From: Elusimicrobiota bacterium
Lineage (GTDB): Bacteria; Elusimicrobiota; Elusimicrobia; JACQPE01
Direction of reading: 5' to 3'
Length of the DNA: 64,000 nucleotides
Assembly: GCA_042563375.1 (NCBI GenBank)
Contig: JBHPMF010000007.1
Coordinates: forward strand, 218-64,217
Position numbers and translations under genes: made by a program. The notes below the pieces were generated by a model that was given only the letters and a program-made list of their open reading frames with translations, had not been told where the DNA came from and searched no databases. Positions 1,715 through 54,174 of this stretch are shown one piece after another. Every line of letters starts with the position of its first letter. The first letter of the stretch is position 1.

Positions 1715-2605
1715 ATGGACACAAACGTAAAAGAAAAAGTAGAACATATAGCTGATTCCCTATTGCGAACGGAAAGGATGCCCCATATCTGGTGTCCTTC
1801 CTGCGGAATAGGATCAACAGTGAATTCTTTCGTGTCAGCGCTTGAAAAATCAAAGATCCCAAAGGAAAAGATCGCGGTGGTGTCCGGCATCGGATGCACC
1901 GGGCGCGTTGCAGGATATATCAATCTTGACAGTTTTCACACAACCCACGGAAGAGCAATACCATTTGCCACCGGATTAGCGCTTGGCAATCCTGAGTTGA
2001 AAGTCGTGGTCTACAGCGGCGACGGAGACATAGCAGCTATCGGAGGCAACCACTTTATAAACGCCGCAAGACGCAATATGGATCTCATGGTAGTATGCGT
2101 GAACAATTTCAACTACGCCATGACAGGCGGACAAGTCGCTCCCACAACACCCGAAGAAGCAAGAGCATCGACCGCGCCATATGGCAACTTTGAGAGCTCA
2201 TTTAGCCTGCCGTATCTGGCTGAATCATGCGGAGCCACTTATGTTGCCCGGTGGACAACGATCCATATCAGGCAGATAACAAACGCCATGACAGAGATGC
2301 TCAACAAAAAAGGTTTCAGATTCCTTGAGATCATCGCCCAATGCCCCACGCTTTTTTTAAGGCTAAACAAGCTAGGAGAAGGTCTTGATGAGCTGGATTA
2401 TTATGAGAAAAACTGCGAACTGCAAAACGGGGCTGACACCAAGACAGTCGGCATCGACTTCAAGGGCAAGATCATCGTAGGAAAATTCGTGGACAAGCCC
2501 AAACCCACGCACCTTGACAACATGAACAATCATTTGAGCAAGATCGTCGGGAGTAAATATGTATGGTGGGGACCGAAGAAAGAAGATAAGGCGATGAGGA
2601 GATGA
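1715..2605 (+). CDS. korB: 2-oxoacid:ferredoxin oxidoreductase beta subunit (TPP-binding)
   Basis: WCPSCG, SGIGC, HTTHGRA, GDGD...NN..Y.MTGGQ.APTTP. Confidence 0.92.
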   Translation: MDTNVKEKVEHIADSLLRTERMPHIWCPSCGIGSTVNSFVSALEKSKIPKEKIAVVSGIGCTGRVAGYINLDSFHTTHGRAIPFATGLALGNPELKVVVYSGDGDIAAIGGNHFINAARRNMDLMVVCVNNFNYAMTGGQVAPTTPEEARASTAPYGNFESSFSLPYLAESCGATYVARWTTIHIRQITNAMTEMLNKKGFRFLEIIAQCPTLFLRLNKLGEGLDELDYYEKNCELQNGADTKTVGIDFKGKIIVGKFVDKPKPTHLDNMNNHLSKIVGSKYVWWGPKKEDKAMRR

Positions 2606-2653
2606 GGCGATGAGGAGAAAAGATATAAAAACAAGATATAAGAGGGTATTTAA

Positions 2654-3916
2654 ATGAAAAACACAATAGATCCTAAATATTTAGCTAAAGCAGACCCAAA
2701 GGGCGTGCTCACAGGCGAATGGTTCCTTGACGGAGACTTTGCATGCGCTGAAGGGGCATTGGCTGCAGGCTGCAGATTCGTGGCAGGATACCCGATCACG
2801 CCGTCCACGGAAGTCGTTGAGAGATTTTCACGAAGGATCCCGCATATAGGCGGGGTATTCATCCAGATGGAAGATGAGATCGCGTCATCCATATGTTTGC
2901 AGGGCGGAGCATGGGCAGGACACAAGGCAATGACAGTCACAAGCGGACCCGGAATGTCTCTGATGATGGAACATGTGGGCTTGGCTGTCATGCTTGAGAC
3001 GCCATGCGTATTTGTAAACGTCCAGAGGGGCGGCCCTTCAACAGGACTGCCTACCCTTCCGGGACAAGCAGACGTCATGCAGGCAAGATGGGGTTCTCAC
3101 GGTGATTACGAGATAATCGCCATATGTCCCAATTCCCCGCAGGAAGCATTTGATTTCACGATAGATGCCTTTAATCTGGCGGAACTCTACCGGGTACCGG
3201 TATTCGTGATGCTGGACGAGTGCGTGGGCCATATGCATGAGAAAGTGGTCATCCCGACAGCAGACAAGATAGATGTCGTGCCGAGGCGCTATACGAAATC
3301 CAAACCAGGCAGTTATCTCCCGTACAAACCCGAATACGATAAATACATCCCCGGAATGACCAAGGCCGGGGACGGACATTTCTTCCATGTCACCGGACTC
3401 ACCCATGATGAAAGAGGTTATCCGGATATGAGCCCGGACTGCCAGGAAGTCTGCGTAACCCGGCTCATGAACAAGATCCGCGACAATGTCGATAAGCTCG
3501 TGCGCTATGACGAAGAAGACATCGAGGGAGCTGACATAGTCCTGCTCGCTTACGGGATCACTTCAAGGGTGGCATACGCGGCCAAGAAACTTGCACGGGA
3601 CAAGGGGCTTAAAGTCGGGATACTGCGCCCTATTATACTGTGGCCGTTCCCGGAGAAAAGGATCCGGGAACTTTCAAAGAAGATCAAGGCCTTTGTAGTA
3701 GCTGAGATGAATTTAGGACAGATCTATTACGAGGTGGAACGCTGCTGTGCCGGCCGCGTCCCAACGTACCTTGCCGGACACGCCGGAGGAACAGTGCACG
3801 AGCCGGAAGCCATACTGGCCAAGCTCATGGAAGCCTCGCAAGACAAAGCTACGGCAGCCAAAAGCGCACCGGCTAAAGCCAAGGCAAAACCCAAGACAAG
3901 GAAGGCAGCAAGATGA
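2654..3916 (+). CDS. korA: 2-oxoacid:ferredoxin oxidoreductase alpha subunit
   Basis: AGYPITPSTE, QMEDEIAS, TSGPG.SLM.E, QRGGPSTGLPT. Confidence 0.92.
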   Translation: MKNTIDPKYLAKADPKGVLTGEWFLDGDFACAEGALAAGCRFVAGYPITPSTEVVERFSRRIPHIGGVFIQMEDEIASSICLQGGAWAGHKAMTVTSGPGMSLMMEHVGLAVMLETPCVFVNVQRGGPSTGLPTLPGQADVMQARWGSHGDYEIIAICPNSPQEAFDFTIDAFNLAELYRVPVFVMLDECVGHMHEKVVIPTADKIDVVPRRYTKSKPGSYLPYKPEYDKYIPGMTKAGDGHFFHVTGLTHDERGYPDMSPDCQEVCVTRLMNKIRDNVDKLVRYDEEDIEGADIVLLAYGITSRVAYAAKKLARDKGLKVGILRPIILWPFPEKRIRELSKKIKAFVVAEMNLGQIYYEVERCCAGRVPTYLAGHAGGTVHEPEAILAKLMEASQDKATAAKSAPAKAKAKPKTRKAAR

Positions 3917-4206
3917 CAAAAAGAATACCAGTGAATCTTTCAGGACTTGAAGTCGCCAAAGGCGATGTCAAGATCAACAAGGATAAATGCAAGGGCTGCC
4001 GCTTTTGCATTGAATTCTGTCCGAATGATGTTTTGCAGATGAGCGATGGATTCAATAAAAAAGGATATCACTATCCTGAAGTCGCTCAGGACAAAGAAGA
4101 TGCTTGCACGGTTTGCAATATCTGCGAGCTGACATGTCCTGATTTCGCGATATATGTTGACGAAAAATCAAAATTAATTAAAAACAAGGATGTTATAACA
4201 GGTTAA
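3913..4206 (+). CDS. korD: 2-oxoacid:ferredoxin oxidoreductase delta subunit (2x[4Fe-4S])
   Basis: CKGCRFCIEFCP and CTVCNICELTCPDFAI. Confidence 0.88.
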   Translation: MTKRIPVNLSGLEVAKGDVKINKDKCKGCRFCIEFCPNDVLQMSDGFNKKGYHYPEVAQDKEDACTVCNICELTCPDFAIYVDEKSKLIKNKDVITG

Positions 4207-4210
4207 TACC

Positions 4211-7642: not shown

Positions 7643-8857
7643 ATGAAAAAGGAAAATAACATGACAGAGACAATAAAAGAAAACAAGGAAACCAAAAAAG
7701 AGGAAAATACGCAGAAACAGGAAGAGGAGATCTTATTAGACGATACGCGTTGGGAAGAAATCCTGGAAGCGACTGACGGAGCTGCAAGCGCGTGTTTTCA
7801 ATGCGGGACATGCACTGCGACCTGCCCATGGACTTTGGTCAAAAAAGATCCTGTTTCCGTGAGGCATATGATCAGGAAGATCCAGCTCGGCCTGCAGGGC
7901 CCTGATGAAGACCTGTGGCTTTGCACAACATGCGCCGCGTGTGAAGAAATGTGCCCCAGAGGCGTGAAGATCTCGGATGTCATAAAGAAATTGCGCCGTC
8001 TTTCCTGGAAAAAAGGCAAAGTGCCCAAAGGCATGTCATCGCTTATGTGGGCGCTCTATTTTGACAAGAACCCGTTCAGACTTCCGCCGTCTGAAAAAGC
8101 AAACTGGGCAAAAGAATTAAAGATCAAAAAATATACTGAAAAGGACGAGATACTCCTTTTTATCGGAAACGCCCCCTCCTATGACAAAAGAGCGCAAAAA
8201 ACAGCCAAGGCCTTGGTCAAGGTGTTTGGAGCCGCTAACGTAAAATTCGGGACGCTTGGAGACAAAGAGCCGGGGTGCGGAGAAGAAGTCCTGGATGTGG
8301 GCCTAGATGAGTATGTATGCGATATCGTCAATGAGAATATGAAGATATTCGAGGATAACAAGGTGCACACTATCGTCACTGTAAGCCCTCACTGCTATGA
8401 CATATTCAGGAACCATTATCCCAAAGGGAAATTCAAGGTCATGCACTATACGCAATACCTTAAAACGCTCATTGATGAGGGAAGGCTTAAATTCAAGAAA
8501 AAATACCCTTACAAAGTAGCGTTCCAGGATCCTTGCTATCTTGGAAGAAGAAATAAGGAATACGAAGCTCCGCGCGAAGTGCTCAGGGCGATGAGCGGAC
8601 TCGAACTCGTTGAGCTCCCGCACACAAAGGAAACAGGCATCTGCTGCGGAGGCGGCGGGGGCAGGATGTTCCTTGAGACAAAAGCAGGAGAAAGATTCTC
8701 GGACCTGAGGATCCATGAAGCAGCAGACGCGAAAACCCAGGTGCTCGCAACAGCATGCCCGTCATGCCTTGCATGCCTTGAGGACAGCACGAAGATCCTG
8801 CCAAAAGCAAATATCAAGGTTCAGGATCTGGCTGAAATAGCAGCGGAAGCTGTATGA
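7643..8857 (+). CDS. HdrD-like Fe-S oxidoreductase (ferredoxin domain + CCG domains)
   Basis: CFQCGTCTATCP, LWLCTTCAACEEMCP, DPCYLGR...CCGGGGG...ACPSC; first CCG domain degenerate. Confidence 0.85.
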   Translation: MKKENNMTETIKENKETKKEENTQKQEEEILLDDTRWEEILEATDGAASACFQCGTCTATCPWTLVKKDPVSVRHMIRKIQLGLQGPDEDLWLCTTCAACEEMCPRGVKISDVIKKLRRLSWKKGKVPKGMSSLMWALYFDKNPFRLPPSEKANWAKELKIKKYTEKDEILLFIGNAPSYDKRAQKTAKALVKVFGAANVKFGTLGDKEPGCGEEVLDVGLDEYVCDIVNENMKIFEDNKVHTIVTVSPHCYDIFRNHYPKGKFKVMHYTQYLKTLIDEGRLKFKKKYPYKVAFQDPCYLGRRNKEYEAPREVLRAMSGLELVELPHTKETGICCGGGGGRMFLETKAGERFSDLRIHEAADAKTQVLATACPSCLACLEDSTKILPKANIKVQDLAEIAAEAV

Positions 8858-8913
8858 ATACCACGCGAATGGACGCGAATAAAGACACGCGAATGGACGC
8901 GAACGCGCGCGAA
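8853..8913. repeat. ACGCGAAT-type periodic repeat arm at hdrD stop
   Basis: CACGCGAAT GGACGCGAAT AAAGACACGCGAAT GGACGCGAAC; related arms at 16614-16660, 28227-28270, 45497-45522, 49468-49584. Confidence 0.7.
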
Positions 8914-8938
8914 CGCGGAGGAAGTCTCCCATTTCTTC

Positions 8939-9038
8939 GTAGCGCGGCAGCTTGTATGCCGCTCTGCTCTGCGGAAGCGGGATACAAGCTCTCGCGCTAC
9001 GTTAAGAAACAGATGCGGGGTACAAGCCCCCGCGCTAC
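8939..9038. repeat. GTAG-type REP cluster (REPIN-like)
   Basis: GTAGCGCGGCAGCTTGTATGCCGC followed by two inverted copies ending CGCGCTAC; same family at 11206-11275. Confidence 0.8.
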
Positions 9039-11164: not shown

Positions 11165-11205
11165 TTTTTTATTTGCCTCGGAACGCCTGTCTTCTGTTTT
11201 TCCTC

Positions 11206-11275
11206 GTAGCGCGGCAGCTTGCATGCCGCTTCTTTTGGTTACCGTCAAAGAGCGGCATACAAGCTGCCGCGCTAC
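11206..11275. repeat. GTAG-type REP doublet (REPIN)
   Basis: GTAGCGCGGCAGCTTGCATGCCGC...GCGGCATACAAGCTGCCGCGCTAC. Confidence 0.8.
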
Positions 11276-11380
11276 GACAAAGGTAGAGCGAGGGACAAGT
11301 CCCGCGTTTTTTTATGAAGAACTCCATTTTAAAAGGAACACAGGCTGAAGCCTGCGGCTACCGGGGAAAAGCGGTTGGAT

Positions 11381-11495
11381 TGTCATCCCAGCGAAGGCTG
11401 GGATCCATTTCCTTCGTTCAGATATAGATCTTTCCGCTGATAAAAAACCTATATCAAAATAGCGGTATTGGATCCCAGCCTTCGCTGGGATGACA
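11381..11495. repeat. RPE-like palindromic element
   Basis: TGTCATCCCAGCGAAGGCTGGGATCCA ... TGGATCCCAGCCTTCGCTGGGATGACA perfect inverted pair. Confidence 0.8.
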
Positions 11496-13404: not shown

Positions 13405-14745
13405 TTATTTTATCGCGGAATTCTTGATTACTCCATAAACAAAACGGATTGTTTTTTCGAACATCGCCTTTGAGACCTTTTCCGCCCTATTACCGTCAGC
13501 CACATAAGGCTCACTGCGCTCTCTTGGCATGCCGATCCCATAGGCTCTTACGCCGACTTTTCTTAAATGAGCAGCATTGGTCGTCCACGGGGACATAAAC
13601 GGCGCTGTCTTTGCCTCCGGATACACATCCTGCGCGGACGCTTCAATCGCCTTGTAAAATACGGACTTCACTGATGACATGCCTGTTTTTGGCGTCAAAG
13701 CGAACATACTCTCATCAAATGAAACCCTGGGATCGCTTATCACGCGCTTCAGCTCCTCCAAAAGATCATTTTCATTGGTTTGCGGCAACGCATTGATATT
13801 AAGGAGGACCCAGGCGCTATCCGCGGCATCTCTTGCCCCTCCGTTGATCTGAGTAGGCACAACAATGTTCCGGACCATTGAATACTCAAGCGTCCCGAAC
13901 TGATAACCAGGATAATTCTTCCCCAATAAGGAAAAGTACTTTGATGTAATGGAATTAAGGCTTGTTGAATAAACATGGGCGTTCAGGCGGCTTATCGCTT
14001 TCGCCAATATAACGATCGGATTTTCCGGATGGGGCGGGTGCGTAAAAACACTTTTTCCGATCGCTTTTATCCTTGTTACAAATGTTAATTTCTCCGCGCA
14101 CTGGACTACAACTTCGGAAACCTCGCCATTATCCACTGCGCTAAAGCCTCCGGGAAGTAATGCGAATTCAGCATCAAGCGCGTCTTTCCTGTTCGCTATA
14201 AGCCACTTGATCCCGAAATTCCCTCCCCCCATGCCGTCAGGCAGCGCCAGAAAAACCACATCTCTTGACAGATCAGGATCTATGCTCTTGATCGCCAAAA
14301 ACACAGCCATATTAGCCGCAAGCAATGCCTTGGAATCCATTGCTCCCAATCCGTAAATAAAACCTTTTTTTTGCTCAGCTCCCCATGGATCGATTTTCCA
14401 ATTCTTGCTCTTGGGACTGGCAGTGTCCAGATGGCTCATTAAAAGCAATGGTTTTCCCGCAGCTTCTTGCGCATCCGGATCTGCTTTGGCTTTTAATCTC
14501 GCTATCACCCCGGAACGCCCCTTGGTAGAAGTGAAAATCTCTGCTTCGATCCCGTTTGCCTTGAAGACCTTCTCAATGTAGACTGCTGCCTCTGCTTCAT
14601 TAGCAGCAGTGTTTTCAGTGTTTATCTTGATAAGCGAGACCAAGTGCCCAAGAGCTGCCTTGTTGATCTTTGTCCATTTGGGCTTCTTTGCCGCTTCAAG
14701 CGGTAAAGCGAGTGACAATATAATTAATACTGAAAATACCCTCAT
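13405..14745 (-). CDS. Secreted M20/M25/M40 metallopeptidase-family protein (catalytic motifs degenerate)
   Basis: Signal peptide MRVFSVLIILSLALPLEA after AGGAGG; SHLDT, IYGLGAMDSK; DEE motif replaced by PDGM. Confidence 0.8.
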   Translation of the reverse strand: MRVFSVLIILSLALPLEAAKKPKWTKINKAALGHLVSLIKINTENTAANEAEAAVYIEKVFKANGIEAEIFTSTKGRSGVIARLKAKADPDAQEAAGKPLLLMSHLDTASPKSKNWKIDPWGAEQKKGFIYGLGAMDSKALLAANMAVFLAIKSIDPDLSRDVVFLALPDGMGGGNFGIKWLIANRKDALDAEFALLPGGFSAVDNGEVSEVVVQCAEKLTFVTRIKAIGKSVFTHPPHPENPIVILAKAISRLNAHVYSTSLNSITSKYFSLLGKNYPGYQFGTLEYSMVRNIVVPTQINGGARDAADSAWVLLNINALPQTNENDLLEELKRVISDPRVSFDESMFALTPKTGMSSVKSVFYKAIEASAQDVYPEAKTAPFMSPWTTNAAHLRKVGVRAYGIGMPRERSEPYVADGNRAEKVSKAMFEKTIRFVYGVIKNSAIK

Positions 14746-14840
14746 AGAACCTCCTGCTAAGCAAAACTTGACATGCATCCCATCTTATTTTATAGAATTA
14801 CTTTTCAGAAATTACTATTATTTAGACATTACTTAACACA

Positions 14841-15767: not shown

Positions 15768-15803
15768 AACGTGAGACGCAAGACGTGAGAAGTAAAAACA
15801 AAA

Positions 15804-16607: not shown

Positions 16608-16666
16608 TGTTGAATTACACGCGAATAATACACGAATGAACACGCGAATTAACACGAATAAGAAAG

Positions 16667-18280: not shown

Positions 18281-18378
18281 ACAGCAGACAGCACACAGTA
18301 GACAGTAGACAGGGAATATGCAGAATGGATATTCCTTTTTTATCTTTCCTGTATGCTGTATGCTGTCTACCGTCTACT
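18281..18378. repeat. CAG(T/C)AGA heptamer-periodic inverted repeat element
   Basis: Left arm ACAGCAGACAGCACACAGTAGACAGTAGACAGG, right arm CCTGTATGCTGTATGCTGTCTACCGTCTACT. Confidence 0.75.
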
Positions 18379-18385
18379 TCTTTTT

Positions 18386-33706: not shown

Positions 33707-33729
33707 ATTCTTTAATTAAAAATTAAGAA

Positions 33730-42104: not shown

Positions 42105-42368
42105 CTATTTCAGATCAAAATCGCAAGCAATCTTTTCATACGCAGGAGAATCCGTTCTTTTTATGTATTTAAGCAATGCCCTTCTTCTGCCTACTAGCTT
42201 GAGCAGGCCACGACGGGAAGAATGGTCCCTTTTAAACCCTTTTAAATGTTCGTTCAGCATCTCTATGCGCCTTGTCAAAAGCGCGATCTGGACAGCAGCT
42301 GAACCTGTGTTTGTGGGTTCGGGCGAATATCTCCGAACGATTTCTGATTTCATTTTTTTATCTAACAT
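42105..42368 (-). CDS. rpsO: 30S ribosomal protein S15
   Basis: NTGS..VQIALLT.RI..LNEHL....DHSSRRGLLKLVG.RR.LL.Y. Confidence 0.96.
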   Translation of the reverse strand: MLDKKMKSEIVRRYSPEPTNTGSAAVQIALLTRRIEMLNEHLKGFKRDHSSRRGLLKLVGRRRALLKYIKRTDSPAYEKIACDFDLK

Positions 42369-43644
42369 TTCCTCTCTCTCTTACTTTCATTATATCTTTT
42401 AATATCTGGTTTCGCAGCTCATTAAAATTCTTAAAGCGCTTTTCTTCGCGGATCTTCTCGGTCAGCTCAATAGCCAGATGCCGGCCATAAAGGTCCCCGT
42501 GGAAGTCGAGGATGTGGGCCTCCACCGTAACAGAATGATGATGCGATGAAGATGGAGAAGCGAACCCCTCTTTTCTCATCATCTCATCATCTCCTGATCT
42601 CCTCATCATATTCTTCAGTGTTGGCTTCGTCCCTATATTAACCACAGCTTCCTTGTTTAAACCGGGTATCCACGCCTTAAAAACGCCTAAAGGGAGCATC
42701 TTGTTTGCGGGTACCTCTATATTGGCGGTTGGAGCGCCGAGGAATTTTCCTGCCAGCTTGTTGCCGAATACCACTTTTCCTGAAATGGGGTAATAATGGC
42801 CAAGCAGATCAAGAGATTCCTTAAAATCCCCGTCAGTCACATAGCCCCTGATACGGCTTGAAGAAATAGGCGAACCATTGCGCTTCATGCCGACTTTGAT
42901 AATTTCCAGATCTCTATTGCATGCGCTGTCTTTGACACGATAACATTTCACGCCATTGTCCTCACTATGGCTTGCCGGATTCCTTGCCTCGTTCTCACTG
43001 GTAAGGTACTTAACCGAGAACTCCCGGTTCTTTCCCATTGAAAAATTATCACCGCACACAAGAACACGGGCATTCCATTTGCCAATCACATAATCATTGA
43101 TGAAGTCCAGGGCAGAGGTGCTGAAGAAATCCGCATCAGTCGGCAGGACAGCGACCCTGTCTATGCCGAATTCCTTTGACAGCAGCTGCCTGCGCTCATC
43201 AATGGTAGTCAATACCCGTGCTCCTGTGCCTGCCTTGTGGCAGGTGTGCCTGCCTTCGGCAGGTGTGCCTATGTGCTGCTGTGCTGCTGTGCTGCTGTTA
43301 ATAGAGGAATTTCCTTTATTAACCGGAGCACGGGAGCACGGGAGCACGGGAGCACAATTCTCATTCACTGGAGCACAATTCAGATACGCTCTTGGAGGAG
43401 CCGGGAACATGGCAACCATGGGCTCGAGATCATATTGCGCTGACACCCCGGAAAGAACATCGAGAACCTTGGCATGCCCCTTATGTATGCCGTCAAATGT
43501 GCCGATCGCGACGACACGACCGGAAGAATGATGAGGCGATGATGTGATGACGGGATGAGGCGAAGAAGACGCAGGAGAAATTGAATCCTCCTTTCTCGTT
43601 ATCTCATCATCTCCTGATCTTCTTGTAATATCCATATTTCTCAT
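42358..43644 (-). CDS. ribF: Bifunctional riboflavin kinase/FAD synthetase with several in-frame palindromic insertions
   Basis: AIGTFDGIHKGH, CGDNF, ISSS.IR, GAPTAN, NIG.KPT, EAHILDF.GDLYG, IR.EK.F; 428 aa versus roughly 310 usual. Confidence 0.92.
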   Translation of the reverse strand: MRNMDITRRSGDDEITRKEDSISPASSSPHPVITSSPHHSSGRVVAIGTFDGIHKGHAKVLDVLSGVSAQYDLEPMVAMFPAPPRAYLNCAPVNENCAPVLPCSRAPVNKGNSSINSSTAAQQHIGTPAEGRHTCHKAGTGARVLTTIDERRQLLSKEFGIDRVAVLPTDADFFSTSALDFINDYVIGKWNARVLVCGDNFSMGKNREFSVKYLTSENEARNPASHSEDNGVKCYRVKDSACNRDLEIIKVGMKRNGSPISSSRIRGYVTDGDFKESLDLLGHYYPISGKVVFGNKLAGKFLGAPTANIEVPANKMLPLGVFKAWIPGLNKEAVVNIGTKPTLKNMMRRSGDDEMMRKEGFASPSSSHHHSVTVEAHILDFHGDLYGRHLAIELTEKIREEKRFKNFNELRNQILKDIMKVRERGNVR

Positions 43645-43646
43645 TA

Positions 43647-44477
43647 TTAACCGGCTATATCTATTAAACTTCGCTCTAAATCTTCTACAGAATTAAGGTC
43701 AGTAAGCGAGGCACTGTCCCCTATATTATACCTTCCTACAGCCTCTCTTGTCAGGTCCTCAAGGTAGCCGATCGTACCCAAACTAAGCGCGAAATCACGC
43801 GCTAAGCTCCTCAGATATGCGCCCTTGCCCACAAGAGCCTCAAAATAAACCCTGGGATGCTTATAATCCAATATCCCGAACTCATAAATATTGACTTTTC
43901 TGGGAGGAATCTCAGGAGTTTCCCCGTTGCGAGCCAGTTTATAAAGCCTCTTTCCCTTGTAATGCAGGGCGCAATATAAAGGGGGCACCTGATCGATCTC
44001 ACCCAAGAACTGTTGCGCTTTTTCTTTAAGTTGCTTTAAGGTAAATGCAACGGCACAATGATGATGCGATGAAGATGGAGAAGCGAAACCCTCTTTTCTC
44101 ATCATCTCATCATCTCCTGATCTCGTTATTATTCTTCCTGTTGGATCCAGAGTATCGGTCGTCTCGCCCAGAAAGATCGTTCCTTTATATCGCTTTTTTG
44201 TATCAGTAAAATCAGAAAATCTTTTTGTGACTTTTCTTCCCAGCATAATAAGCAGAACCCCGTTCGCGAAGGGGTCAAGCGTGCCGGCGTGGCCCACCTT
44301 CGGGCAATGATGATGGGATGATGCGATGACGGGATGATGCGATAAAGAGGAATCCTCTGGGGCTCTCTTTCTCATCATGCCATCATCGCATGACACCCTC
44401 ATCACTCTCTTGATGTGGCGTATCACATCATATGAAGATATGCCCTTGGGCTTATTTACGTTTAGAATTCCTTCCAT
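43647..44477 (-). CDS. truB: tRNA pseudouridine(55) synthase with two in-frame palindromic insertions
   Basis: GILNVNKPKG.SS.DV, KVGHAGTLDPFA.GVL, TDTLD..G, QVPP.Y.A....G.RLY.LAR, KG.YLRSLARD. Confidence 0.93.
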   Translation of the reverse strand: MEGILNVNKPKGISSYDVIRHIKRVMRVSCDDGMMRKRAPEDSSLSHHPVIASSHHHCPKVGHAGTLDPFANGVLLIMLGRKVTKRFSDFTDTKKRYKGTIFLGETTDTLDPTGRIITRSGDDEMMRKEGFASPSSSHHHCAVAFTLKQLKEKAQQFLGEIDQVPPLYCALHYKGKRLYKLARNGETPEIPPRKVNIYEFGILDYKHPRVYFEALVGKGAYLRSLARDFALSLGTIGYLEDLTREAVGRYNIGDSASLTDLNSVEDLERSLIDIAG

Positions 44478-45459
44478 GTTCAATGCTTTTTTTAAATTGT
44501 TTGACAATCATCCGCTCAATACTGTCCATAGAAGTGTTTTTGATCTCAAAGCCCGCGGCGTTTCTGTGGCCGCCGCCATTAAACGCCCTTGCCACCTCAG
44601 ATACGTCAATGCGGCCTTTTGACCTCATCGATACTGATGTGATGCCCTTTCCCCTGAAAGGCTCCTGTTTGAACATAAAAGTGGCTTCCACGCTCTCCGG
44701 AGATAATCCGTAATTCACTATATCATCCGTATCAGCGGGCTCAGGCGCATGGCGCAGGAAGTCCCGTTTTGAAAGCCGCATGCAGGATAATTTCCCGGAT
44801 ACATGGAACTTTATCCCATTAAGAGCCTTGGCCAGGAGTTTCAGATGGCCGATATTCTTTGAGGCGAACATCCTGTTGTAAATCTCCGTATGCTTCACCC
44901 CGGCCTCAAGAAACCCGGCTGCGATCCTGTGGGTAGCCGCAGAAGTAAGCGCATATTGGAAGCACCCGGTATCCGACACCATGCCGGCATAAAGCCATGT
45001 TGACTCCTTGACCGACGGCTTGATCCTCAGATGCTCATAGAGCCTGTATATCTGCTCTGCGTTTGAAGATGCCTTGGGATCGATCCAGTTCACATCAGCA
45101 AAACACCTGCTTGTCTTATGGTGATCGATATTAACGGTTGTCCTGAAATGATTCTCGTATCCGATATTCCCGGCCCTGCGCTTATTGGAGCATTCCAGAA
45201 ATATCGCGCATTCTAAGCCTTGGCAGTCTTGAACAACAGCCGGTGCGATGATTTTTTCTTTGCCAACCATAAATCTGATATGCGGCGGAACAACCGTGGT
45301 GCTGGCAACAATGATTTTTCTTCCCGGACCAAGCCGCCTGATAAGGCTGGCCATGGCAAAGGAGGATGCAAGGGAGTCAGCATCAGGCTTGATATGCCCC
45401 ATGATGGCAAAACTCTTACAAACCTTCAGTATCTTGCAGATACGTTTAATGGGGTCCAT
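44452..45459 (-). CDS. nrnA: DHH-family phosphoesterase (NrnA-like)
   Basis: H..PDADS, NIDHH, SDTG.F, S.RS, FNGGGH.NAAG. Confidence 0.9.
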   Translation of the reverse strand: MDPIKRICKILKVCKSFAIMGHIKPDADSLASSFAMASLIRRLGPGRKIIVASTTVVPPHIRFMVGKEKIIAPAVVQDCQGLECAIFLECSNKRRAGNIGYENHFRTTVNIDHHKTSRCFADVNWIDPKASSNAEQIYRLYEHLRIKPSVKESTWLYAGMVSDTGCFQYALTSAATHRIAAGFLEAGVKHTEIYNRMFASKNIGHLKLLAKALNGIKFHVSGKLSCMRLSKRDFLRHAPEPADTDDIVNYGLSPESVEATFMFKQEPFRGKGITSVSMRSKGRIDVSEVARAFNGGGHRNAAGFEIKNTSMDSIERMIVKQFKKSIEHGRNSKRK

Positions 45460-45526
45460 TTATATCCGGTCAACACAAGGGAGGCGAGAATTCTTTATCA
45501 TTCGTGTTTAATTCGCGTTCTCAACA

Positions 45527-45922: not shown

Positions 45923-46075
45923 GATCTTAAAAAATGCTAAAGATAGAGAAAACACAGGGCTAAATTATGAATGCTAAAAACAACAGAAGATTTCTTCATT
46001 CTACGCTTTTCTTGTTTTCGTTCTTTCATTCAGCATTTAGCCCTTGATTTTTTTATTTAGCGTTATTTGCTATGC

Positions 46076-49458: not shown

Positions 49459-49588
49459 ACGGATTCCTCGCGAATAAGACGCGAATTATAAAGACACGCC
49501 ACAAAACCAAGAGCCCCCCCACCCAATCTCCCCCACCAAGGGGGAGGAGAAAAAAGGAGATTCCCATTCGCGTTCATTCGTGTAGTCT

Positions 49589-50044
49589 TCATAATTTCGG
49601 CTCCAAATTCGCTCTCGCGATATCCTCAAAAGGCACTTCAGCATTACTGCCTTCAATCCCAAGCGTTACCACTGAACCGTTAACTCCATAAATATTTGCT
49701 ATGGCCACATTGTCCTTTATACATGCCGGAGGCTTTCTGAATACCGCCCTGATCTGCTTGCCAACGAACCTCCTGTAATCATCAATGCTCTTAAGCGCCC
49801 TGTAAATACCCGGGGAAGAAACCTCGAGCACATAAGGCCCCTCAGTCGGATCCTCCTGATCAAAGGCCTGGCTGATGGACCTGCTCACCTTTTCGCAATC
49901 ACTAAGACTCACGCGCTCTTGAGGGTCCTTTTTCTCAATGTACACTCTCAAAACTTTGCGCTTCCCCTCAGACCCGAATTCATGCCCCATAAAGCAATAA
50001 TCCATGCTTTCAACGGACGTTTTTAAGAACTCTTCAATGTTCAT
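49589..50044 (-). CDS. rimP: Ribosome maturation factor RimP
   Basis: LRVYI.K, DCE.VSR.IS, Y.LEVSSPG. Confidence 0.92.
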   Translation of the reverse strand: MNIEEFLKTSVESMDYCFMGHEFGSEGKRKVLRVYIEKKDPQERVSLSDCEKVSRSISQAFDQEDPTEGPYVLEVSSPGIYRALKSIDDYRRFVGKQIRAVFRKPPACIKDNVAIANIYGVNGSVVTLGIEGSNAEVPFEDIARANLEPKL

Positions 50045-50330: not shown

Positions 50331-50403
50331 GGGCCCGTAGCTCAGTTGGTAGAGCATCCGCCTTTTAAGCGGGTGGCCGCGCGTTCGAGTCGCGCCGGGC
50401 CCA
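50331..50403 (+). tRNA. tRNA-Lys (UUU), CCA not encoded
   Basis: GGGCCCG acceptor stem, TAGCTCAGTTGGTAGAGC D arm, anticodon loop CT-TTT-AA, GTTCGAGTC T arm. Confidence 0.95.
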
Positions 50404-50564
50404 AATATAAGCAAAAATGCTAAATTCTAAAGTATAAATGCTAAAAATAAGGAAATCTTTATTATGGCAATTTATACGTTTTCTTGATTTATTTACATTT
50501 AGCCCTCAGCAAAGCAGCCCTATGGCATGCCCCACAGGGCATAATTTAGACCTTCTATATGCTG

Positions 50565-50701: not shown

Positions 50702-50916
50702 GTATGTGTGGCTAGTAGACAGGGGGGGCAGTAGGCAGCATAAAGTAGACAATAGACAGGGGCAGTAGGCAGGGGGCAGGGAAAAAGAAAATCTTAATTT
50801 AAACTGAAAGATAGTGGATTTTAATACTCTGATTAGTCTTATTCGGTTTCTGAGGTATGCTCAGTGTTCTCTTTATTCTGCCTCTTCCCTGTATACTGTC
50901 TACTGTATGCTATATG

Positions 50917-51301: not shown

Positions 51302-51452
51302 AATGCTAAATGCTAAAAAGCGTGAAACGTGAGACGTGAAACGTAAAATGTCAAAAACAAAAAGCAAGAAAAAATCTGGGTCTTTTTTTCCGACAAACTT
51401 CTTGCGCCTAATGTCTAACGTCTTACGCTGTAAGTTTTTTAGCATTTAGCCC
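51302..51452. repeat. Nested heptamer inverted-repeat element (CGTGARA inside TGCTAAA)
   Basis: AATGCTAAATGCTAAAAAG-CGTGAAACGTGAGACGTGAAACG...CGTCTTACGCT-...TTAGCATTTAGC; similar structure at 26710-26825. Confidence 0.7.
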
Positions 51453-51516: not shown

Positions 51517-53106
51517 CTAGCTGATCAAGCTCTCGGAAATATCTTCCCCCTCAGGCTCGGGAGGCTTATCAAGCTTTGGGAACACTACGGTGAACTGCGC
51601 GCCTCCGACGTCAAGATTCTCCGCCATTATTTTTCCGCCCATGCGCTCCATCAATGCCTTGGAGATCACAAGCCCCAAGCCTGTTCCAACTGTCTTTTTT
51701 GATATCGCGTCGCCTGAGCGCGAAAACGGGGTAAAGAGCTTTCCCAGAAATTCCCTGGGGATCCCGGGCCCCTGATCCCTGACATGCACAACAATGCTCT
51801 TTGGCAATTCCAACCCCTCGATCGTAACAGACTTTTCAACGGGAGTATATTTGGCAGCGTTGGAAAGCAGATTGAGAAATATTTGTTTGACCTTATCCTC
51901 GTCCAGCAATGCCACGAACTCTCCCTCCATAAAAGAAACCTCATACCTGGGCTGATCAGGCCTCATCTTTAAGCCCGCGACAACGCTCTCTGCCACTGAT
52001 CTTAAATTGACCTCCTTATAATCAAGCTCTATTCTTCCCTGCTGTATGCGTTTTAAATCCAATATCTCATTTATCATCTTTGCCAGTCTGTTGGATTCAT
52101 CCACGACCGCTTTGCAATAGCTCAGGATCTTTTCCTTGCCCAGACGGTCATAGAATTTGAGGATCATTGAGTTGAATCCCTGAATAGCCGAAAGCGGGGT
52201 TCTTAGTTCATGCGAAGCGAATGACACGAATTTTGATTCCATGTCAGCCATCTCCTTGACCTTTTTATTGATCACCTGCAAGCTTTCATTAGCCTCCTGG
52301 AGCTGGTTCGTGCGCTGCTTTACAAGCACTCCCAGTTCATTTTTGGATACTGTTGTGGATTTAAGCTTCTTGACCATGGTATTAAACGAGAGGGCGAGCT
52401 GCCCGATCTCATCAGCCGCAGGCGCCCGCACCTGCGTTTGCAGGTCCCCCTCAGCCACTTTGCCGGCTGCCGCCTGCAATGCCTTAAGAGGCTTGACTAT
52501 CCTGCCGATGAACATTATCGAAGCCACTGTTGCCAAAAGGATAAGGGTCAGCACTGAGATCACGGCCCAGGTAAAAATGTCTTTCATGATTTCATCAAGC
52601 CTGTGGGATGAAAGCCCTATCAGTATCGCTCCTATCACAAGCGAGGACTTACCTGTTGGAAAAAGCGTTTCCCTGCCGCCTGTCTTATAGGATTGAGGCC
52701 CTTGTATTGATATCCCTGCCAGGTAACGCCTGTTGCCCTCATCCCACCTGACAGACACTTTACCGCTTGAAAGCACTTCCTGCACCCACTTATCAACAAA
52801 GAATTTACCGCCCCTTCTGCCTGGTTCTGAATGAGCGAGGATGAGCCCGTCATTGCTAATGACGATCGCTATGCTGACATCATCATCTTCCTTAAGGGAT
52901 GTTATCACGCCCTCCATGCCCCGCACGTAATTCCCCCTTTTACTTGCGAAAGTCGCCTGTTTTGACACGGCCTTGACCAGTATCGTGGCCCTGCGCCTAA
53001 GTTCCTCATCAAACGAGTTTTTTGAATGATAATAAAACACAAGAGAAACAATACCCGCAGTGACTGATACAAGCAGAATAAATAGAGCGATCAGTTTTTT
53101 AGCCAT
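51517..53106 (-). CDS. Membrane sensor histidine kinase (HAMP-HisKA-HATPase)
   Basis: Two TMs, DEIGQLA.SFN.M, SHELRTPL, NLLSNA.KYT, D.GPGI, GTGLGL. Confidence 0.93.
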   Translation of the reverse strand: MAKKLIALFILLVSVTAGIVSLVFYYHSKNSFDEELRRRATILVKAVSKQATFASKRGNYVRGMEGVITSLKEDDDVSIAIVISNDGLILAHSEPGRRGGKFFVDKWVQEVLSSGKVSVRWDEGNRRYLAGISIQGPQSYKTGGRETLFPTGKSSLVIGAILIGLSSHRLDEIMKDIFTWAVISVLTLILLATVASIMFIGRIVKPLKALQAAAGKVAEGDLQTQVRAPAADEIGQLALSFNTMVKKLKSTTVSKNELGVLVKQRTNQLQEANESLQVINKKVKEMADMESKFVSFASHELRTPLSAIQGFNSMILKFYDRLGKEKILSYCKAVVDESNRLAKMINEILDLKRIQQGRIELDYKEVNLRSVAESVVAGLKMRPDQPRYEVSFMEGEFVALLDEDKVKQIFLNLLSNAAKYTPVEKSVTIEGLELPKSIVVHVRDQGPGIPREFLGKLFTPFSRSGDAISKKTVGTGLGLVISKALMERMGGKIMAENLDVGGAQFTVVFPKLDKPPEPEGEDISESLIS

Positions 53107-53276
53107 AAAAATAATACAGCAGACAGTAAACAGCAGACAGCAGACAGGTTAGAAAGGAACTCTTCCATGTACTGCTACCGGCTACTCTCTACTTTCTTTA
53201 TAGCCTGACATTTGTATAATTTCAACGGATAATTTAGAATGATTGTAATACATGTCCGTTGGGCATGCATTACAAT

Positions 53277-53338
53277 CATCCCGGACTTGTTTCGGGATCT
53301 CCACAGAAAAGAGATCCTGAACTAAATTCAGGATAACA
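53277..53338. repeat. RPE-like palindromic element
   Basis: TCATCCCGGACTTGTTTCGGGATCTC...GAGATCCTGAACTAAATTCAGGATAACA; related remnant near 50086-50110. Confidence 0.6.
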
Positions 53339-53350
53339 GAATAAATACTT

Positions 53351-54091
53351 ATGAAAGTCTTAAAGATTTTAATTTTCAGCTTAGCGGCTTTGTGCCTCAG
53401 CGGCTCAGTGCCTTCTCTGCATGCCGAGCAATTCGATAAATTCAAGCAATATGTGACAAAAATAAACTTAAAGCCGTTTGCAAAAGACCTTGGCGGCCTT
53501 ATCGGCGCAGGCTCTTTTCACAGCGGACGCTCTCTTGGATTCCCCGGGGTTGACGTAGCCGGACATGCCGCAGTACAGGCAAAGCCTTCAAAGAAAAACC
53601 TTATTCTCGTAACAGCCAAGGAAGATAATCTCGCTGTTGGTTTTGCCCAAGGAGAGATAGGCCTGCCATACAAGATAGATGTGATACTGCGGGGCACAAG
53701 TTTCGGAGACTCAGCCATTGTGGGAGGCGGCCTGCGATACGGGATACTCCGGCCGAAGCTTCTTCCGTTTGTACCGTCGCTGTCGATCTCGGGTTTCAGT
53801 CATGTGATGAGCCATACCTTCTTTTCAGCTGTGCACTCGTCTGTTAACCTGACGCTGAGCGTATCAATGCCGTTTATACAGCCCTATATCGGCGGAGGCA
53901 TGGATTTCTGCAAGGTTAAGATCAAGGAATCGAACACTGCAACGCTGGTTGGCTACAAGATAAAGGAAGAAGGCGCAAGGGGCACAGCCGGCATAAACAT
54001 AAAACTATTCCCCTTAACGTACTTTCACGCAGCGTATACAAACTTCCACGGTCAGGACGGGTACGAAGGCGGGATTGGGTTTAAGCTGTAA
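53351..54091 (+). CDS. Putative outer-membrane beta-barrel protein
   Basis: Signal peptide, amphipathic strands, PY.G.G, C-terminal G.GFKL. Confidence 0.65.
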   Translation: MKVLKILIFSLAALCLSGSVPSLHAEQFDKFKQYVTKINLKPFAKDLGGLIGAGSFHSGRSLGFPGVDVAGHAAVQAKPSKKNLILVTAKEDNLAVGFAQGEIGLPYKIDVILRGTSFGDSAIVGGGLRYGILRPKLLPFVPSLSISGFSHVMSHTFFSAVHSSVNLTLSVSMPFIQPYIGGGMDFCKVKIKESNTATLVGYKIKEEGARGTAGINIKLFPLTYFHAAYTNFHGQDGYEGGIGFKL

Positions 54092-54109
54092 ACAGCTTAA
54101 ACCCAATCC
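54072..54109. terminator. Perfect 18-bp inverted repeat between convergent genes (possible bidirectional terminator)
   Basis: GGATTGGGTTTAAGCTGT-AA-ACAGCTTAAACCCAATCC. Confidence 0.5.
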
Positions 54110-54174
54110 GTTCTGCTGTGCTCCCGTGCTCCCGTGCTCCCGTTAATAAAGGAAATTCCTCTATCAACAGCATT

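Follow-up and report, generated by a model that had tools for sequence, protein, structure and literature searches.

Genes and repeat elements in the window

The window, by which we mean the whole 64,000-nucleotide stretch analysed, belongs to one Elusimicrobiota bacterium assembly that is 68% complete. It opens on an HUH gene and contains GTAG-type classical REP hairpins at 8938-9001 and 11204-11277. The features are listed below by position and strand, with z referring to the RNA fold.

1-845, + strand: TIRYT-type Y1 (HUH) tyrosine transposase gene (331 aa; start 150 nt before the window), of which the 3' two thirds lie inside
777-840, no strand: perfect palindrome, arms of 30 nt, loop of 4 nt (contig 996-1055; z -14.3)
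2584-2622, + strand: single-arm GATGAGG octamer array containing the TGA stop of a 2-oxoacid:ferredoxin oxidoreductase TPP-subunit gene (1715-2605)
8853-9001, + strand: ACGCGAAT-type array from the stop of gene 7643-8857, then the GTAG-type REP hairpin (8938-9001)
15763-15795, + strand: CGTGAGA heptamer arm across the stop of an ABC ATPase gene (14841-15767)
15829-15892, + strand: small hairpin flanked by direct TTCATCA/CATCATT arrays, in the first 30 codons of an ABC-2 permease ORF (15804-16607)
16612-16659, + strand: ACGCGAAT-type array filling the junction of genes 15804-16607 and 16667-18277
18281-18378, + strand: two-armed ACAGYAG hairpin filling the junction of an ABC auxiliary gene and a DUF4340 gene, tipped by a GGAATAT...ATATTCC hairpin with a T-run after it (z -5.0)
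19332-19365, + strand: single-arm GATAAGTT octamer array from the stop of gene 18353-19333
22482-22600, - strand: two-armed hairpin lying between genes 22594-24372 and 21356-22480, with AAAGTGA heptamers in one arm and TTTTTCACT nonamers in the other (z -5.3)
26712-26808, + strand: two-armed CGTRAAA hairpin directly past the gcvH stop (26708; z -4.6)
28225-28270, + strand: ATTCGYG array (complement of ACGCGAAT) between glycine-cleavage P subunit genes
29896-29969, no strand: TAACAAC-type hairpin (z -4.3)
30231-30258, + strand: degenerate, weakly periodic CAGYAGA arm directly 5' of the Cob_adeno_trans gene (30266-30829)
30862-30891, + strand: CTGCCTA arm past the Cob_adeno_trans stop, where the longest amidase ORF has its opening codons; with the preceding arm it brackets the Cob_adeno_trans gene in inverted CAGYAGA arms
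32462-32500, + strand: single CAGYAGA-type arm across the amidase stop (30826-32466), periodic at the 95% level only
33626-33745, - strand: hairpin and AAAATTC / AATTAAA arrays where genes 33730-34422 and 32519-33706 meet
36424-36564, - strand: ftsK / lolA-like junction, filled by a two-armed hairpin whose octamers alternate between TAAGGCAC and TGAGCCAC (z -5.2)
42534-42610, - strand: GATGATGA-type hairpin in frame in ribF, in the riboflavin-kinase loop, encoding ...RRSGDDEMMRKEGFASPSSSHHHS... (weak fold, z -1.9)
43215-43360, - strand: composite element in frame in ribF, in the FAD-synthetase domain (z -7.2)
43527-43625, - strand: GATGAGG-type hairpin from which the ribF ORF takes its opening ~39 codons (z -4.4)
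44057-44124, - strand: GATGATGA-type hairpin in frame in truB; residues 129-155, unmatched in solved TruB
44306-44404, - strand: GATGATGS-type hairpin in frame in truB, residues 38-68 (z -5.9)
45497-45525, - strand: ATTCGYG arm at the rbfA / DHH junction
45934-46056, - strand: infB / rbfA junction, filled by a TGCTAAA/GGGCTAAAT hairpin (z -2.4)
49468-49590, - strand: rimP / nusA junction, filled by a CTCCCCC...GGGGGAG hairpin nested between ACGCGAAT-type arms (z -1.7)
50416-50480, no strand: TGCTAAA array and weak hairpin directly 3' of tRNA-Lys (50331-50403; z -2.4)
50713-50908, no strand: CAGTAGR/GGGGCAG arrays and a CTGTATA array, intergenic, 5' of a response-regulator gene
51302-51450, - strand: compound hairpin with TGCTAAA arms outside and CGTGARA arms inside (z -6.0)
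53114-53197, - strand: ACAGCAG hairpin adjoining the start of a histidine-kinase gene (51517-53106; z -3.8)
53379-53413, + strand: GTGCCTCA/GCGGCTCA array in the first ~20 codons of a DUF6588 ORF (53351-54091)
54113-54172, - strand: one-armed member of a 15-copy family (GTGCTCCC x3 and core palindrome), abutting the stop of a giant ORF (54175-)

Periodic arrays are abundant and enriched at gene edges

A preliminary description of this DNA had cited elements at 32 places, and by direct reading the named unit or its complement is present at all of them. It had given the ACGCGAAT units an 8-nt spacing; the real spacing is 10-12 nt. TRF returned 65 rows in the window, chiefly of period 7-9. Genome-wide, arrays with at least three copies numbered 217, 122, and 71 for periods 7, 8, and 9, compared to 5, 3, and 4 in a third-order Markov genome, which amounts to an 18-43x excess. 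Against 1500 random 36-mers from the same window, a null that is raised by the elements' own presence, 18 of the 32 cited sites were periodic above the 99% level. An inverted partner within 160 nt exceeded the 99% level at 5 sites and the 95% level at 17. Thus about half of the cited elements are two-armed hairpins and the others single arms, in agreement with the earlier account of two arms or one arm alone.

With genes called crudely as the longest ORFs, random placement of the 486 period 7-9 arrays would leave 36 intergenic, 17 straddling a gene edge, and 382 deep inside ORFs, versus 199, 66, and 141 observed. This is a strong positional enrichment over the control, one of the checks that the preliminary description had named. 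It had many junctions carrying an element; by the TRF criterion only 9 of 48 junctions in the window have an array. Many arrays contain a stop codon or begin there, and a stop triplet occurs in 68% of 3'-end arrays, which is partly a consequence of how ORF ends are defined. The share of junctions with an array is 10.8% for tandem, 10.5% for divergent, and 7.2% for convergent ones, with no preference for gene 3' ends across the three types. The genome holds 231 distinct units (103 of 7 nt, 58 of 8 nt, and 70 of 9 nt). The periodic-array observation is confirmed: the arrays are far above chance and enriched at gene edges.

Hairpin architecture

Same-unit arrays lying within 150 nt of each other are inverted in 37 cases and direct in 3, so pure slippage is insufficient to account for them. 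The arms measure about 30 nt (3-5 unit copies) around a spacer of about 30 nt, giving elements of about 70-150 bp, and the lengths of the two arms are uncorrelated. The spacer often includes a core palindrome of a purine run and a pyrimidine run, or a nested REP-like hairpin. Among 143 hairpins, the order given in the preliminary description, purine-rich arm first, applies to only 67, versus 40 of the reverse. Direct reading of 18281-18378 shows unit variants that are not mirrored between the arms. A clear inverted partner (within 250 nt, 99% threshold) is absent for 479 of 632 arrays, which counts against a mobile-repeat reading. RNA folding gave z <= -3.8 for 11 of 16 window elements, with 0 of 200 shuffles equally stable, and z from -1.7 to -2.4 for the remaining five.

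Copies within truB and ribF

Five copies, two in truB and three in ribF, both of them essential genes, are stop-free and in frame. Judging from frame and conservation, they would be translated. Because these five (42534, 43215, 43527, 44057, and 44306) appear to be translated parts of the two genes, the description of the elements as gene-boundary features is incomplete. The composite element at 43215-43360 is made of CCTGCC...GGCAGG hairpins, a TGTGCTGC arm, a core palindrome, and a GGAGCACG arm, and adds about 50 extra residues to the FAD-synthetase domain; the element at 43527-43625 is followed by no in-frame ribF start. In truB, the insert at 44306-44404 stops four residues ahead of the invariant GH.G.LDP motif (G72-P79; 19 aligned TruB proteins). 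Aligned relatives do not have either TruB insert or the first two RibF inserts, and all four are unaligned in solved structures. The TruB model has a pLDDT of 87.6 overall, low only at residues ~41-70 and ~131-150, so the inserts are floppy loops in the predicted structure. At the same loop of RibF, another Elusimicrobia MAG (L033) has octamer arrays unlike those here, and G004 has an expansion. Copies that keep the frame and whose units are free of stop triplets persist inside genes.

Related copies and sister genera

At a threshold of at least 60 nt and at least 85% identity, 53 of 398 regions match another region, and the largest group has 15 members. That only a minority have a long near-identical relative elsewhere counts against a mobile-repeat reading. 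In the 15-copy family, the ten copies printed have a common core palindrome, a variable number of GGAGCACR/TGTGCTSC units, and unrelated flanks. Copies in truB and ribF are 95% identical over 76 nt, loop included. Some families have spread as copies, to unlinked places as well as to genes nearby. Relatedness of the spacers between loci was a further check named in the preliminary description, and members of some families do have the same spacer. We looked for a target-site duplication and a conserved terminal motif and found neither, so transposition stays a proposal. Neighbouring regions have a common unit family 16 times, versus 8.0 +/- 2.8 in 500 label permutations (maximum 17). This local sharing speaks for copying, and its modest size counts against a mobile-repeat reading.

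In sister genera, an orthologous site either stands empty or holds unrelated units, so that the empty sites foreseen in the preliminary description are present. The rimP/nusA junction is 1-5 nt long in G001, G003, and G005, and different hairpins fill it in G000, G004, and G002. The infB/rbfA junction is filled in G000 and G004 only and empty in G001, G002, G003, and G005; G004 has a near-identical element on either side of rbfA. Different hairpins in three genera at a stop/start junction only a few nt wide count against a mobile-repeat reading: random insertion plus selection fits poorly, and targeted insertion or in-place growth fits better. None of the units of G001, G002, G003, and G005 is in common with the G000 genome, compared to 5 of 25 in G004. 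Array density is 0.8-3.0 per 10 kb in G000, G001, G002, G004, and G005, and 0.2 in G003. It is 0-0.5 per 10 kb in the 11 first-sampled class-level pieces, G016, and G013, and 1.3 in G007 (2 arrays in 15.5 kb).

Y1 transposase genes and tagged palindromes

The Y1 gene at 1-845 matches PF01797 at 38.7 bits (cut-off 23), Bac_DnaA_C at 20.9 bits (under the cut-off of 31.5), and NF047646 at 61.6 bits (under 80). HIH and RYIHSNP motifs can be read in its translation. The gene encodes a candidate trans-acting enzyme and lies 5' of the part covered by the preliminary description. The palindrome at 777-840 constitutes the last codons of this gene, and its arms consist of a GGGGACGT tag and two 9-nt units (GTCAGTTTT), a TIR-dimer type. 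It is among 13 palindromic tag pairs (~60-nt dimers of TIRYT ends) dispersed in the genome. PF01797 matched only two Y1 transposase genes in the 68%-complete assembly. The GGGG[AT]C tag of TIRYT ends occurs in only 4 of the 143 hairpins. The preliminary description thought it probable that each family has its own nuclease or transposase; this is not supported, given 231 distinct units versus two Y1 genes, unit repertoires that differ between genera, and the rarity of the tag.

Origin of the elements

We lean, with about even confidence, toward lineage-specific non-autonomous hairpin repeats of REP/BIME/MITE-like kind that are copied, diversified by slippage, and persist where tolerated. They would spread by a copy mechanism acting on the hairpin, either single-strand transposition or template switching, and their arms would diversify afterwards through replication slippage. 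Selection would then leave the harmless copies, in stop-to-start gaps, other spacers, and protein surface loops. In-gene copies may be translated as disordered peptide loops, like those of Rickettsia RPEs, and the array itself probably supplies the stop codon of many genes. We infer that the elements have no dedicated cellular function. The preliminary interpretation is thus supported in part: as to non-coding, non-autonomous repeats unlike classical REPs, but not as to one enzyme per family.

Growth in place without transposition, as the footprint of a lineage-specific mutational habit, is possible but doubtful. Slippage duplications of 7-9 nt would accumulate where tolerated, typically from the stop codon onward; the inverted arm would come from fold-back or template-switch synthesis at stalled forks, and template switching to nearby arrays would occasionally give local look-alikes. 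Such growth fits the unrelated units that different genera have in one and the same tiny junction or RibF loop, the 231 units with a genus-specific repertoire, the lack of a terminal motif or target duplication in our searches, the arrays that contain or begin at a stop codon, and perfect palindromes like 777-840. Among long simple repeats, heptanucleotides are also the most frequent type in many bacteria, for which polymerase slippage has been held responsible (Mrazek 2007, relayed in an excerpt of PMC4679880). It is harder to reconcile with families that have a non-repetitive core at up to 15 unlinked loci, with arms bounded near 30 nt that do not co-vary, with the 37:3 inverted bias, and with the unmirrored arm variants at 18281-18378, which a fold-back copy should mirror.

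We think it unlikely that the hairpins are non-autonomous partners of TIRYT-type Y1 transposases, in which a DnaA-like helix-turn-helix would read the 7-9-nt units and single strands would move at the replication fork. The window-start gene does end in a palindrome with two 9-nt units per arm, a ACGCGAAT hairpin lies directly 3' of the second Y1 copy (L112/L032), and inverted ends with a GGGGWSAS-like tag flank the gene in 8 of 12 copies (G001, G002). In 5 of these 8, two clear tandem 6-8-nt units, varying between copies, come after the tag; unit size equals that of the hairpins, and the core of the abundant GGGGTCACGTCT tag recurs in the CGTGAGA family. Against this stand the scarcity of the tag and of the genes, and the Bac_DnaA_C score under the Pfam cut-off. 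Moreover, G015 and G023 have 7-8 gene copies, and a 20-kb sample of each contained 0 arrays; G005 has arrays (0.83 per 10 kb) with no match to the Y1 protein found. Least of all do we expect selected RNA devices (terminators/attenuators, RNase processing sites, mRNA stabilisers, or translational-coupling insulators), an improbable reading despite the stable folds, the tips resembling a small hairpin and T-run at 18281, 26712, and 51320, and the exact stop-to-start placement. Mismatches compatible with G-U pairing favour the antisense strand (264 vs 184; per hairpin 63 vs 38), divergent junctions are as rich as tandem ones, and no Rfam family matches the elements, so that wobble mismatches, junction types, and Rfam give no sign of RNA-level selection. 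Orthologous junctions are also empty in three sister genera, copies lie within coding sequence, and the sequences are not conserved between genera.

Comparison with known systems

Foldback (FB) transposons of Drosophila have long inverted arms of short tandem repeats in variable number; they are eukaryotic, far larger than the hairpins here, and have a known associated coding part, so the likeness is no more than an analogy. Cyanobacterial STRR and small dispersed repeats are reportedly comparators of the tandem heptanucleotide type.

The following comparisons draw on excerpts of the cited papers. REP/BIME/REPIN repeats with RAYT are likewise families of short dispersed extragenic palindromes (Bertels & Rainey 2011, PMC3116915; Di Nocera et al. 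2013, PMC3733652), often nested or mosaic and between operon genes, with Y1 HUH genes in the same genome (PMC3733652). Unlike them, the arms here are tandem 7-9-nt arrays rather than a unique stem, no tag of GTAG/CGTC type is conserved (the tested GGGG[AT]C tag being the rare one above), and hundreds of low-copy unit types occur, also inside genes. TIRtrons/TIRYT are TIR-associated tyrosine transposases with GGGGWSAS ends (Di Nocera 2013, PMC3733652), subclass 2.1 of Quentin et al. 2018 (PMC6006769). The window-start gene and its paralogue resemble them in their Y1 core and DnaA_C-like tail, as do the GGGG[AT]C.. inverted ends of relatives' gene copies; the likeness covers tag-bearing palindromes, not the periodic hairpins. 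The pair of tandem units beside the tag is seen here, and we met no mention of it for TIRtrons in the excerpts of PMC3733652 and PMC6006769.

Rickettsia palindromic elements (RPEs) are about 150 bp long and lie in frame in unrelated housekeeping genes, with a common, fold-compatible peptide (MITE review PMC10969869, in excerpt). Our elements differ from RPEs in organism and sequence, are shorter (about 70-150 bp) with tandem-unit arms, and are mostly intergenic. Intergenic TAACTGA heptanucleotide repeats occur in Beggiatoaceae, Cyanobacteria, and Bacteroidetes, with 169 direct sets and one inverted in a Beggiatoaceae genome (MacGregor 2015, PMC4679880, in excerpt). These and the heptanucleotide long simple-sequence repeats (LSSR) of Mrazek et al. 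2007 are similar to our arrays as 7-nt tandems far over expectation, mostly intergenic near start codons and phylogenetically sporadic, but they consist of one unit or a few in direct orientation, whereas here hundreds of units form short-range hairpin pairs. Altogether, the elements look like a little-described variant of bacterial selfish palindromic repeats.

Genome and gene content

The assembly of the window's own genome (G000) comprises 2.97 Mb in 180 contigs (47% G+C, 68% complete), and its PNPase is most similar, among species-representative genomes, to that of an "Elusimicrobia bacterium" MAG (60% identity). Based on Pfam annotation, the gene content of the window is ordinary housekeeping.

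Genes of the window
2-oxoacid:ferredoxin oxidoreductase, Hdr/Mvh-like and ETF genes (Pfam)
ABC-2 transporter operon (Pfam)
folD and glycine-cleavage genes (Pfam)
Block rimP-nusA-infB-rbfA-DHH-truB-ribF-(rpsO)-pnp-...-ftsK-lolA-rodZ (Pfam)
Two-component pair (Pfam)
54175-64000, giant ORF of 3,650 codons on the contig, no fewer than 3,274 of them within the window

The giant ORF contains an internal 30-nt repeat at 58174-58244, and a second giant ORF (G000:C93) has in-frame heptamer arrays recurring at 2,330-nt spacing. At 26211-26342, a 53-nt unit is repeated 2.5 times at 100% identity; it includes the gcvH ribosome-binding site and first five codons, with the result that the real gcvH start is preceded by two short ORFs in other frames. 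This repeat reflects either recent duplication or an error of assembly. A TGCTAAA array starts within 12 nt after the tRNA-Lys (TTT) gene, and the match of metagenome contig L165 to this stretch (82% identity over 61 nt) is simply the tRNA.

Tandem-unit hairpins in the genome

The periodic hairpins, with arms built of tandem units, are a real, genome-wide and family-wide class. TRF returned 65 rows for the window, with periods mostly of 7-9 nt. Across the whole of G000, arrays of at least three copies far outnumbered those in a genome simulated with a third-order Markov model: 217 versus 5 at period 7, 122 versus 3 at period 8, and 71 versus 4 at period 9. Relative to random placement, the 486 arrays of period 7-9 were enriched between genes (199 observed, 36 expected) and across gene edges (66 observed, 17 expected) and depleted deep inside ORFs (141 observed, 382 expected). 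This is the positional enrichment that the preliminary description had expected in placing the elements at gene boundaries; the edges are indeed enriched, but it had missed copies within truB and ribF.

Same-unit arrays within 150 nt of each other are inverted in 37 cases and direct in three. Among 50 clean pairs, the arms measure about 31 and 30 nt, and the spacers are mostly 16-60 nt. Folding of 16 window elements gave z ≤ -3.8 for 11, with none of 200 shuffles as stable, and five were weaker. The preliminary description had named units at 32 places in the window, and direct reading found the unit or its complement at all 32. Measured against random places in the window, a null that the elements themselves inflate, 18 of the 32 sites are periodic beyond the 99% level, and an inverted partner exceeds that level at five and the 95% level at 17. 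Its further claim that the purine arm comes first describes a tendency (67 versus 40) but no fixed rule, and the regular spacing it reported for ACGCGAAT units proved irregular. G000 has 231 distinct units. Single-linkage clustering of these was dropped, as by our reasoning its chaining about equals the estimated chance density.

Copies inside truB, ribF and other genes

Two neighboring genes read straight through hairpin elements:

43647-44507, minus strand, truB
42358-43644, minus strand, ribF

In a 12-protein TruB alignment spanning the family and class, G000 alone has two inserts, at residues ~38-68 and 129-155, and a phmmer comparison with solved TruB structures left exactly these two stretches unaligned. 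One of them stops four residues ahead of an invariant TruB motif. RibF has 428 residues, compared to 305-342 in relatives, and its extra length falls in three parts:

RibF part 1, N-terminal extension made of an element
RibF part 2, block of ~50 residues in the FAD-synthetase domain
RibF part 3, ~25 residues in a loop of the riboflavin-kinase domain

Over 76 nt with the loop included, the ribF copy at 42534 matches the truB copy at 44057 at 95% identity, and both encode the peptide SGDDEMMRKEGFASPSSSHHH. All five inserts are in frame and stop-free, a state that translation would require and RNA-level removal would not. An AlphaFold2 model of TruB (19-sequence alignment; mean pLDDT 87.6, pTM 0.84) has low confidence only in blocks ~41-70 and 131-150, which is where the inserts lie. 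By this model, the TruB inserts appear compatible with the fold of the host protein.

Beyond these two genes, 18 hairpins of the strict G000 set are placed over 90 nt within an ORF, as candidate inserts; one is a further copy of the ribF composite element, in a different gene. Also among them, two paralogous ORFs (G000:C178:4377-4468 and G000:C41:2914-3008) carry differing putative hairpin inserts at one linker, just before a shared ...LIDDDPLVHM. Among metagenome contigs, a TruB search gave 173 matches to patterns drawn partly from the inserts and yielded no relative, and the 19 contigs with an exact 24-mer from beside the truB insert included no close one, matching only the conserved motif.

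Filled and empty sites in relatives

Array density varies among relatives, and the values below rest on samples of differing size.

Array density in G000 and relatives (G001-G005 are sister genera in the same family)
G000, 1.34 arrays per 10 kb, whole genome
G001, 1.18 arrays per 10 kb, 68 kb sampled
G002, 2.87 arrays per 10 kb, 91 kb sampled
G003, 0.21 arrays per 10 kb, 145 kb sampled
G004, 3.00 arrays per 10 kb, 143 kb sampled, very uneven between pieces
G005, 0.83 arrays per 10 kb, 120 kb sampled
G006, 0 arrays per 10 kb, only 29 kb sampled
G007, 1.29 arrays per 10 kb, 15.5 kb sampled
G013, 0.25 arrays per 10 kb, 40 kb sampled
G016, 0 arrays per 10 kb, 12.8 kb sampled
11 other class-level relatives, 0-0.5 arrays per 10 kb, 7-20 kb each

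Five family members and L033, from another Elusimicrobia MAG, have retained the gene order from rimP to rodZ. The empty orthologous sites that the preliminary description had proposed to look for exist: the stop-start gap between rimP and nusA is 1-5 nt in G001, G003 and G005. In three other genera, this junction is filled by hairpins of ~120 nt whose units all differ:

rimP/nusA in G000, ACGCGAAT arms and a nested hairpin
rimP/nusA in G004, AAGGCACT arms
rimP/nusA in G002, GTCGTTT arms

The infB/rbfA junction is filled only in G000 and G004. In RibF, G004 too has an expanded riboflavin-kinase loop, and the same loop in L033 holds an in-frame set of four GGCAGAGA units opposite four of CTCCGCCG. 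By exact match, G000 shares no unit with G001, G002, G003 or G005, and five of the 25 G004 units occur in G000. In G004, rbfA (L093, ~14460-15190) has almost the same element on either side, an arrangement like that of the paired truB and ribF copies in the window.

A FastTree phylogeny from 2,629 concatenated columns and 14 taxa, rooted on class relatives and built by this one method, gave the topology (G000,(G001,(G005,(G004,(G002,G003))))). The array-poor G003 is thus nested among array-rich genomes. On this tree, the filled junctions need several gains or several precise losses.

Copying between loci

In G000, 53 of the 398 array-bearing regions have a counterpart elsewhere that matches over at least 60 nt with ≥85% identity. 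The most populous group comprises 15 regions, of which two lie in the window:

43215-43360, member of the 15-region group
54113-54172, one-armed member of the same group

In the ten copies printed, a core palindrome of the TTAATAAAGGAATTTCCTTTATTAA type lies between variable numbers of TGTGCTSC and GGAGCACR units, and the flanks are unrelated. Neighboring regions belong to the same family 16 times, compared to 8.0 ± 2.8 under permutation (maximum 17). The motif GGAA(0-4)TTCC occurs at the tips of nine of the 143 hairpins in the genome-wide set, versus 0.5% of random 40-mers; we rejected it as a general core motif, since it is enriched yet far from universal. No universal terminal motif was found in the 143 hairpins, and the enriched 5-mers outside the arms stem from single families.

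Alongside the periodic hairpins, there are several REP-like families of the ordinary kind, at 8938-9001, 11204-11277 and 11381-11495 in the window and, by 20-mers, genome-wide. They include a GTAG-tagged family, a TGTCATCC... family and CTCTCCC..GGGAGAG (~45 copies), and some are nested in the spacers of periodic hairpins.

TIRYT-type transposases

A PF01797 search of G000 found two genes, both with a Y1 core. One begins 150 nt ahead of the window and ends at 845 (331 aa); it scores 38.7 bits (cut-off 23), and its translation includes HIH and RYIHSNP. The two genes score 61.6 and 84.6 bits with NCBIfam REP_Tyr_transpos (cut-off 80), and both give a weak Bac_DnaA_C match (20.9 and 20.0 bits) that falls short of the cut-off of 31.5. 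As far as sequence goes, they match the TIRYT/TIRtron class, the ends of which share GGGGWSAS according to main-text passages of Di Nocera et al. (2013, PMC3733652) and which corresponds to subclass 2.1 in those of Quentin et al. (2018, PMC6006769).

The last residues of the window's transposase are encoded by a perfect palindrome at 777-840, with 30-nt arms that each comprise a GGGGACGT tag, one position off the GGGGWSAS consensus, and two 9-nt units. This tag-bearing palindrome forms the 3' end of the copy; on the 5' side, only 66 nt remain to the contig end. In G001 and G002, eight of 12 TIRYT copies have inverted GGGGWSAS-like ends on both sides (L192 with the variant GTGTCAGG), and in five of those eight the tag is followed by two clear tandem units of 6-8 nt that differ between copies. 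Ends with such units, in these genomes and in G000, are:

L183, L188, L189, L190, L193 (G002 and G001), tandem units beside the tag
L112, 1310-1400 (G000), tandem units beside the tag

These units might be sites read by the DnaA-like tail; the main-text passages on TIRYT in PMC3733652 and PMC6006769 do not mention them. G000 has 27 GGGGTCANNTCT sites, compared to one in the reversed control, and 13 palindromic pairs of tagged ends of ~60 nt, including 777-840. Because only four of the 143 periodic hairpins carry the tag GGGG[AT]C, they are not of this kind; the tag-bearing palindromes are a known kind.

Inverted CAGYAGA arms (30231-30258 and 30862-30891) bracket a whole PduO-type cobalamin adenosyltransferase gene (Cob_adeno_trans, E 3e-43), which may be the helical-bundle gene between repeats that the preliminary description mentioned.

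Possible origins and RNA function

The reading we favor, at about even chances, is that the hairpins are selfish DNA that is copied, diversified by slippage and tolerated, with translation of those copies that land in frame. Against copying, 345 of the 398 regions lack a near-identical relative, and no target duplication or flanking direct repeat was seen at two near-identical copies. Growth in place without transposition is possible, if somewhat unlikely. Co-expansion of the two arms was rejected (Spearman 0.17, not significant). A selected RNA function seems highly improbable. Across 121 hairpins between co-directional genes, G-U-compatible mismatches are fewer on the sense strand (184, versus 264 antisense; by hairpin, 38 versus 63), so the wobble asymmetry is opposite to the prediction and sense-strand selection was rejected. 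We infer that the antisense excess is due to the purine/A-rich coding strand. At gathering score, Rfam 15 matched only the tRNA-Lys (50331-50403) in the window. Of tandem junctions, 10.8% are touched by an array, compared to 10.5% of divergent and 7.2% of convergent ones; with neither a convergent nor a 3'-end preference, a terminator reading was rejected. Many arrays start at or contain a stop codon, and the unit holds a stop triplet on the sense strand in 65 of 96 gene-end arrays; as a signal, this excess (68%, with 37% for random intergenic 7/8-mers) is largely circular, given that the first stop is what defines the end of an ORF. We also rejected integron attC sites as the identity of the repeats, since the flanks are a conserved housekeeping operon.

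That the hairpins depend on TIRYT enzymes is doubtful. The TIRYT copy in L112 has a ACGCGAAT hairpin, on its 3' side only. A search of 31 genomes found TIRYT homologues in G000 and 18 of 30 relatives (19 in all), including array-free samples such as G015 and G023, and none in the array-bearing G005. Across relatives, TIRYT copy number and array density show no clean pattern in these small samples of related genomes. A MITE has terminal inverted repeats, a target-site duplication and a parent IS; the hairpins do have inverted arms, and the analysis turned up no parent element that shares them. A fuller form of this reading, which we also hold to be unlikely, is that the DnaA-like HTH of TIRYT reads paralogue-specific paired 7-9-nt subterminal units and that the hundreds of periodic hairpins are its non-autonomous offspring, with arms drifting by unit turnover and repeatedly delivered to the same hot spots. 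Such hot spots would be single-strand-exposed stop/start junctions and particular truB and ribF loops. If true, target recognition by these transposases would be modular and able to evolve, and the system would also remodel essential proteins.

On the unsettled origin of bacterial heptamer repeats and of REP-like palindromes, the genome family provides an unusually clear natural experiment: across sister genera, the same junctions of a few nucleotides and one enzyme loop either are empty or hold hairpins unrelated to each other, and two essential enzymes carry five copies as predicted extra peptide loops. Tying the process to an enzyme or a replication habit would explain the origin of the repeats, the remodeling of operon spacing and new surface loops in conserved proteins.

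Comparison with known systems

In mostly openly accessible main texts, supplements aside, we found nothing specific on such elements in Elusimicrobia or on tandem-unit hairpins in general. The closest known systems are REP/BIME/REPIN, the Rickettsia palindromic elements (RPEs) and heptanucleotide repeats, and the defining features of none fit fully. REP/REPIN-RAYT systems have a conserved GTAG-like tag at the foot of a unique 20-40-bp stem, which is absent here as a universal feature, and near-identical units in high copy number, whereas the largest family here has 15 regions. Intrinsic terminators prefer gene 3' ends and convergent junctions and show selection for structure on the transcribed strand, neither of which is seen here. 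Heptanucleotide repeats (PMC4679880) of the LSSR/STRR type are direct arrays dominated by one unit or a few; here, tandem 5-11-nt units likewise exceed chance length, as the array counts against simulation show, but the units are numerous (231) and predominantly inverted (37:3). RPEs, as portrayed in parts of PMC10969869, are in-frame repeats in conserved genes, absent from orthologues and encoding a shared peptide, as are the truB and ribF copies. RPE inserts also suit the fold of their host protein, as the TruB model predicts here. Altogether, the finding as it stands is a well-documented variant rather than a new kind of system.
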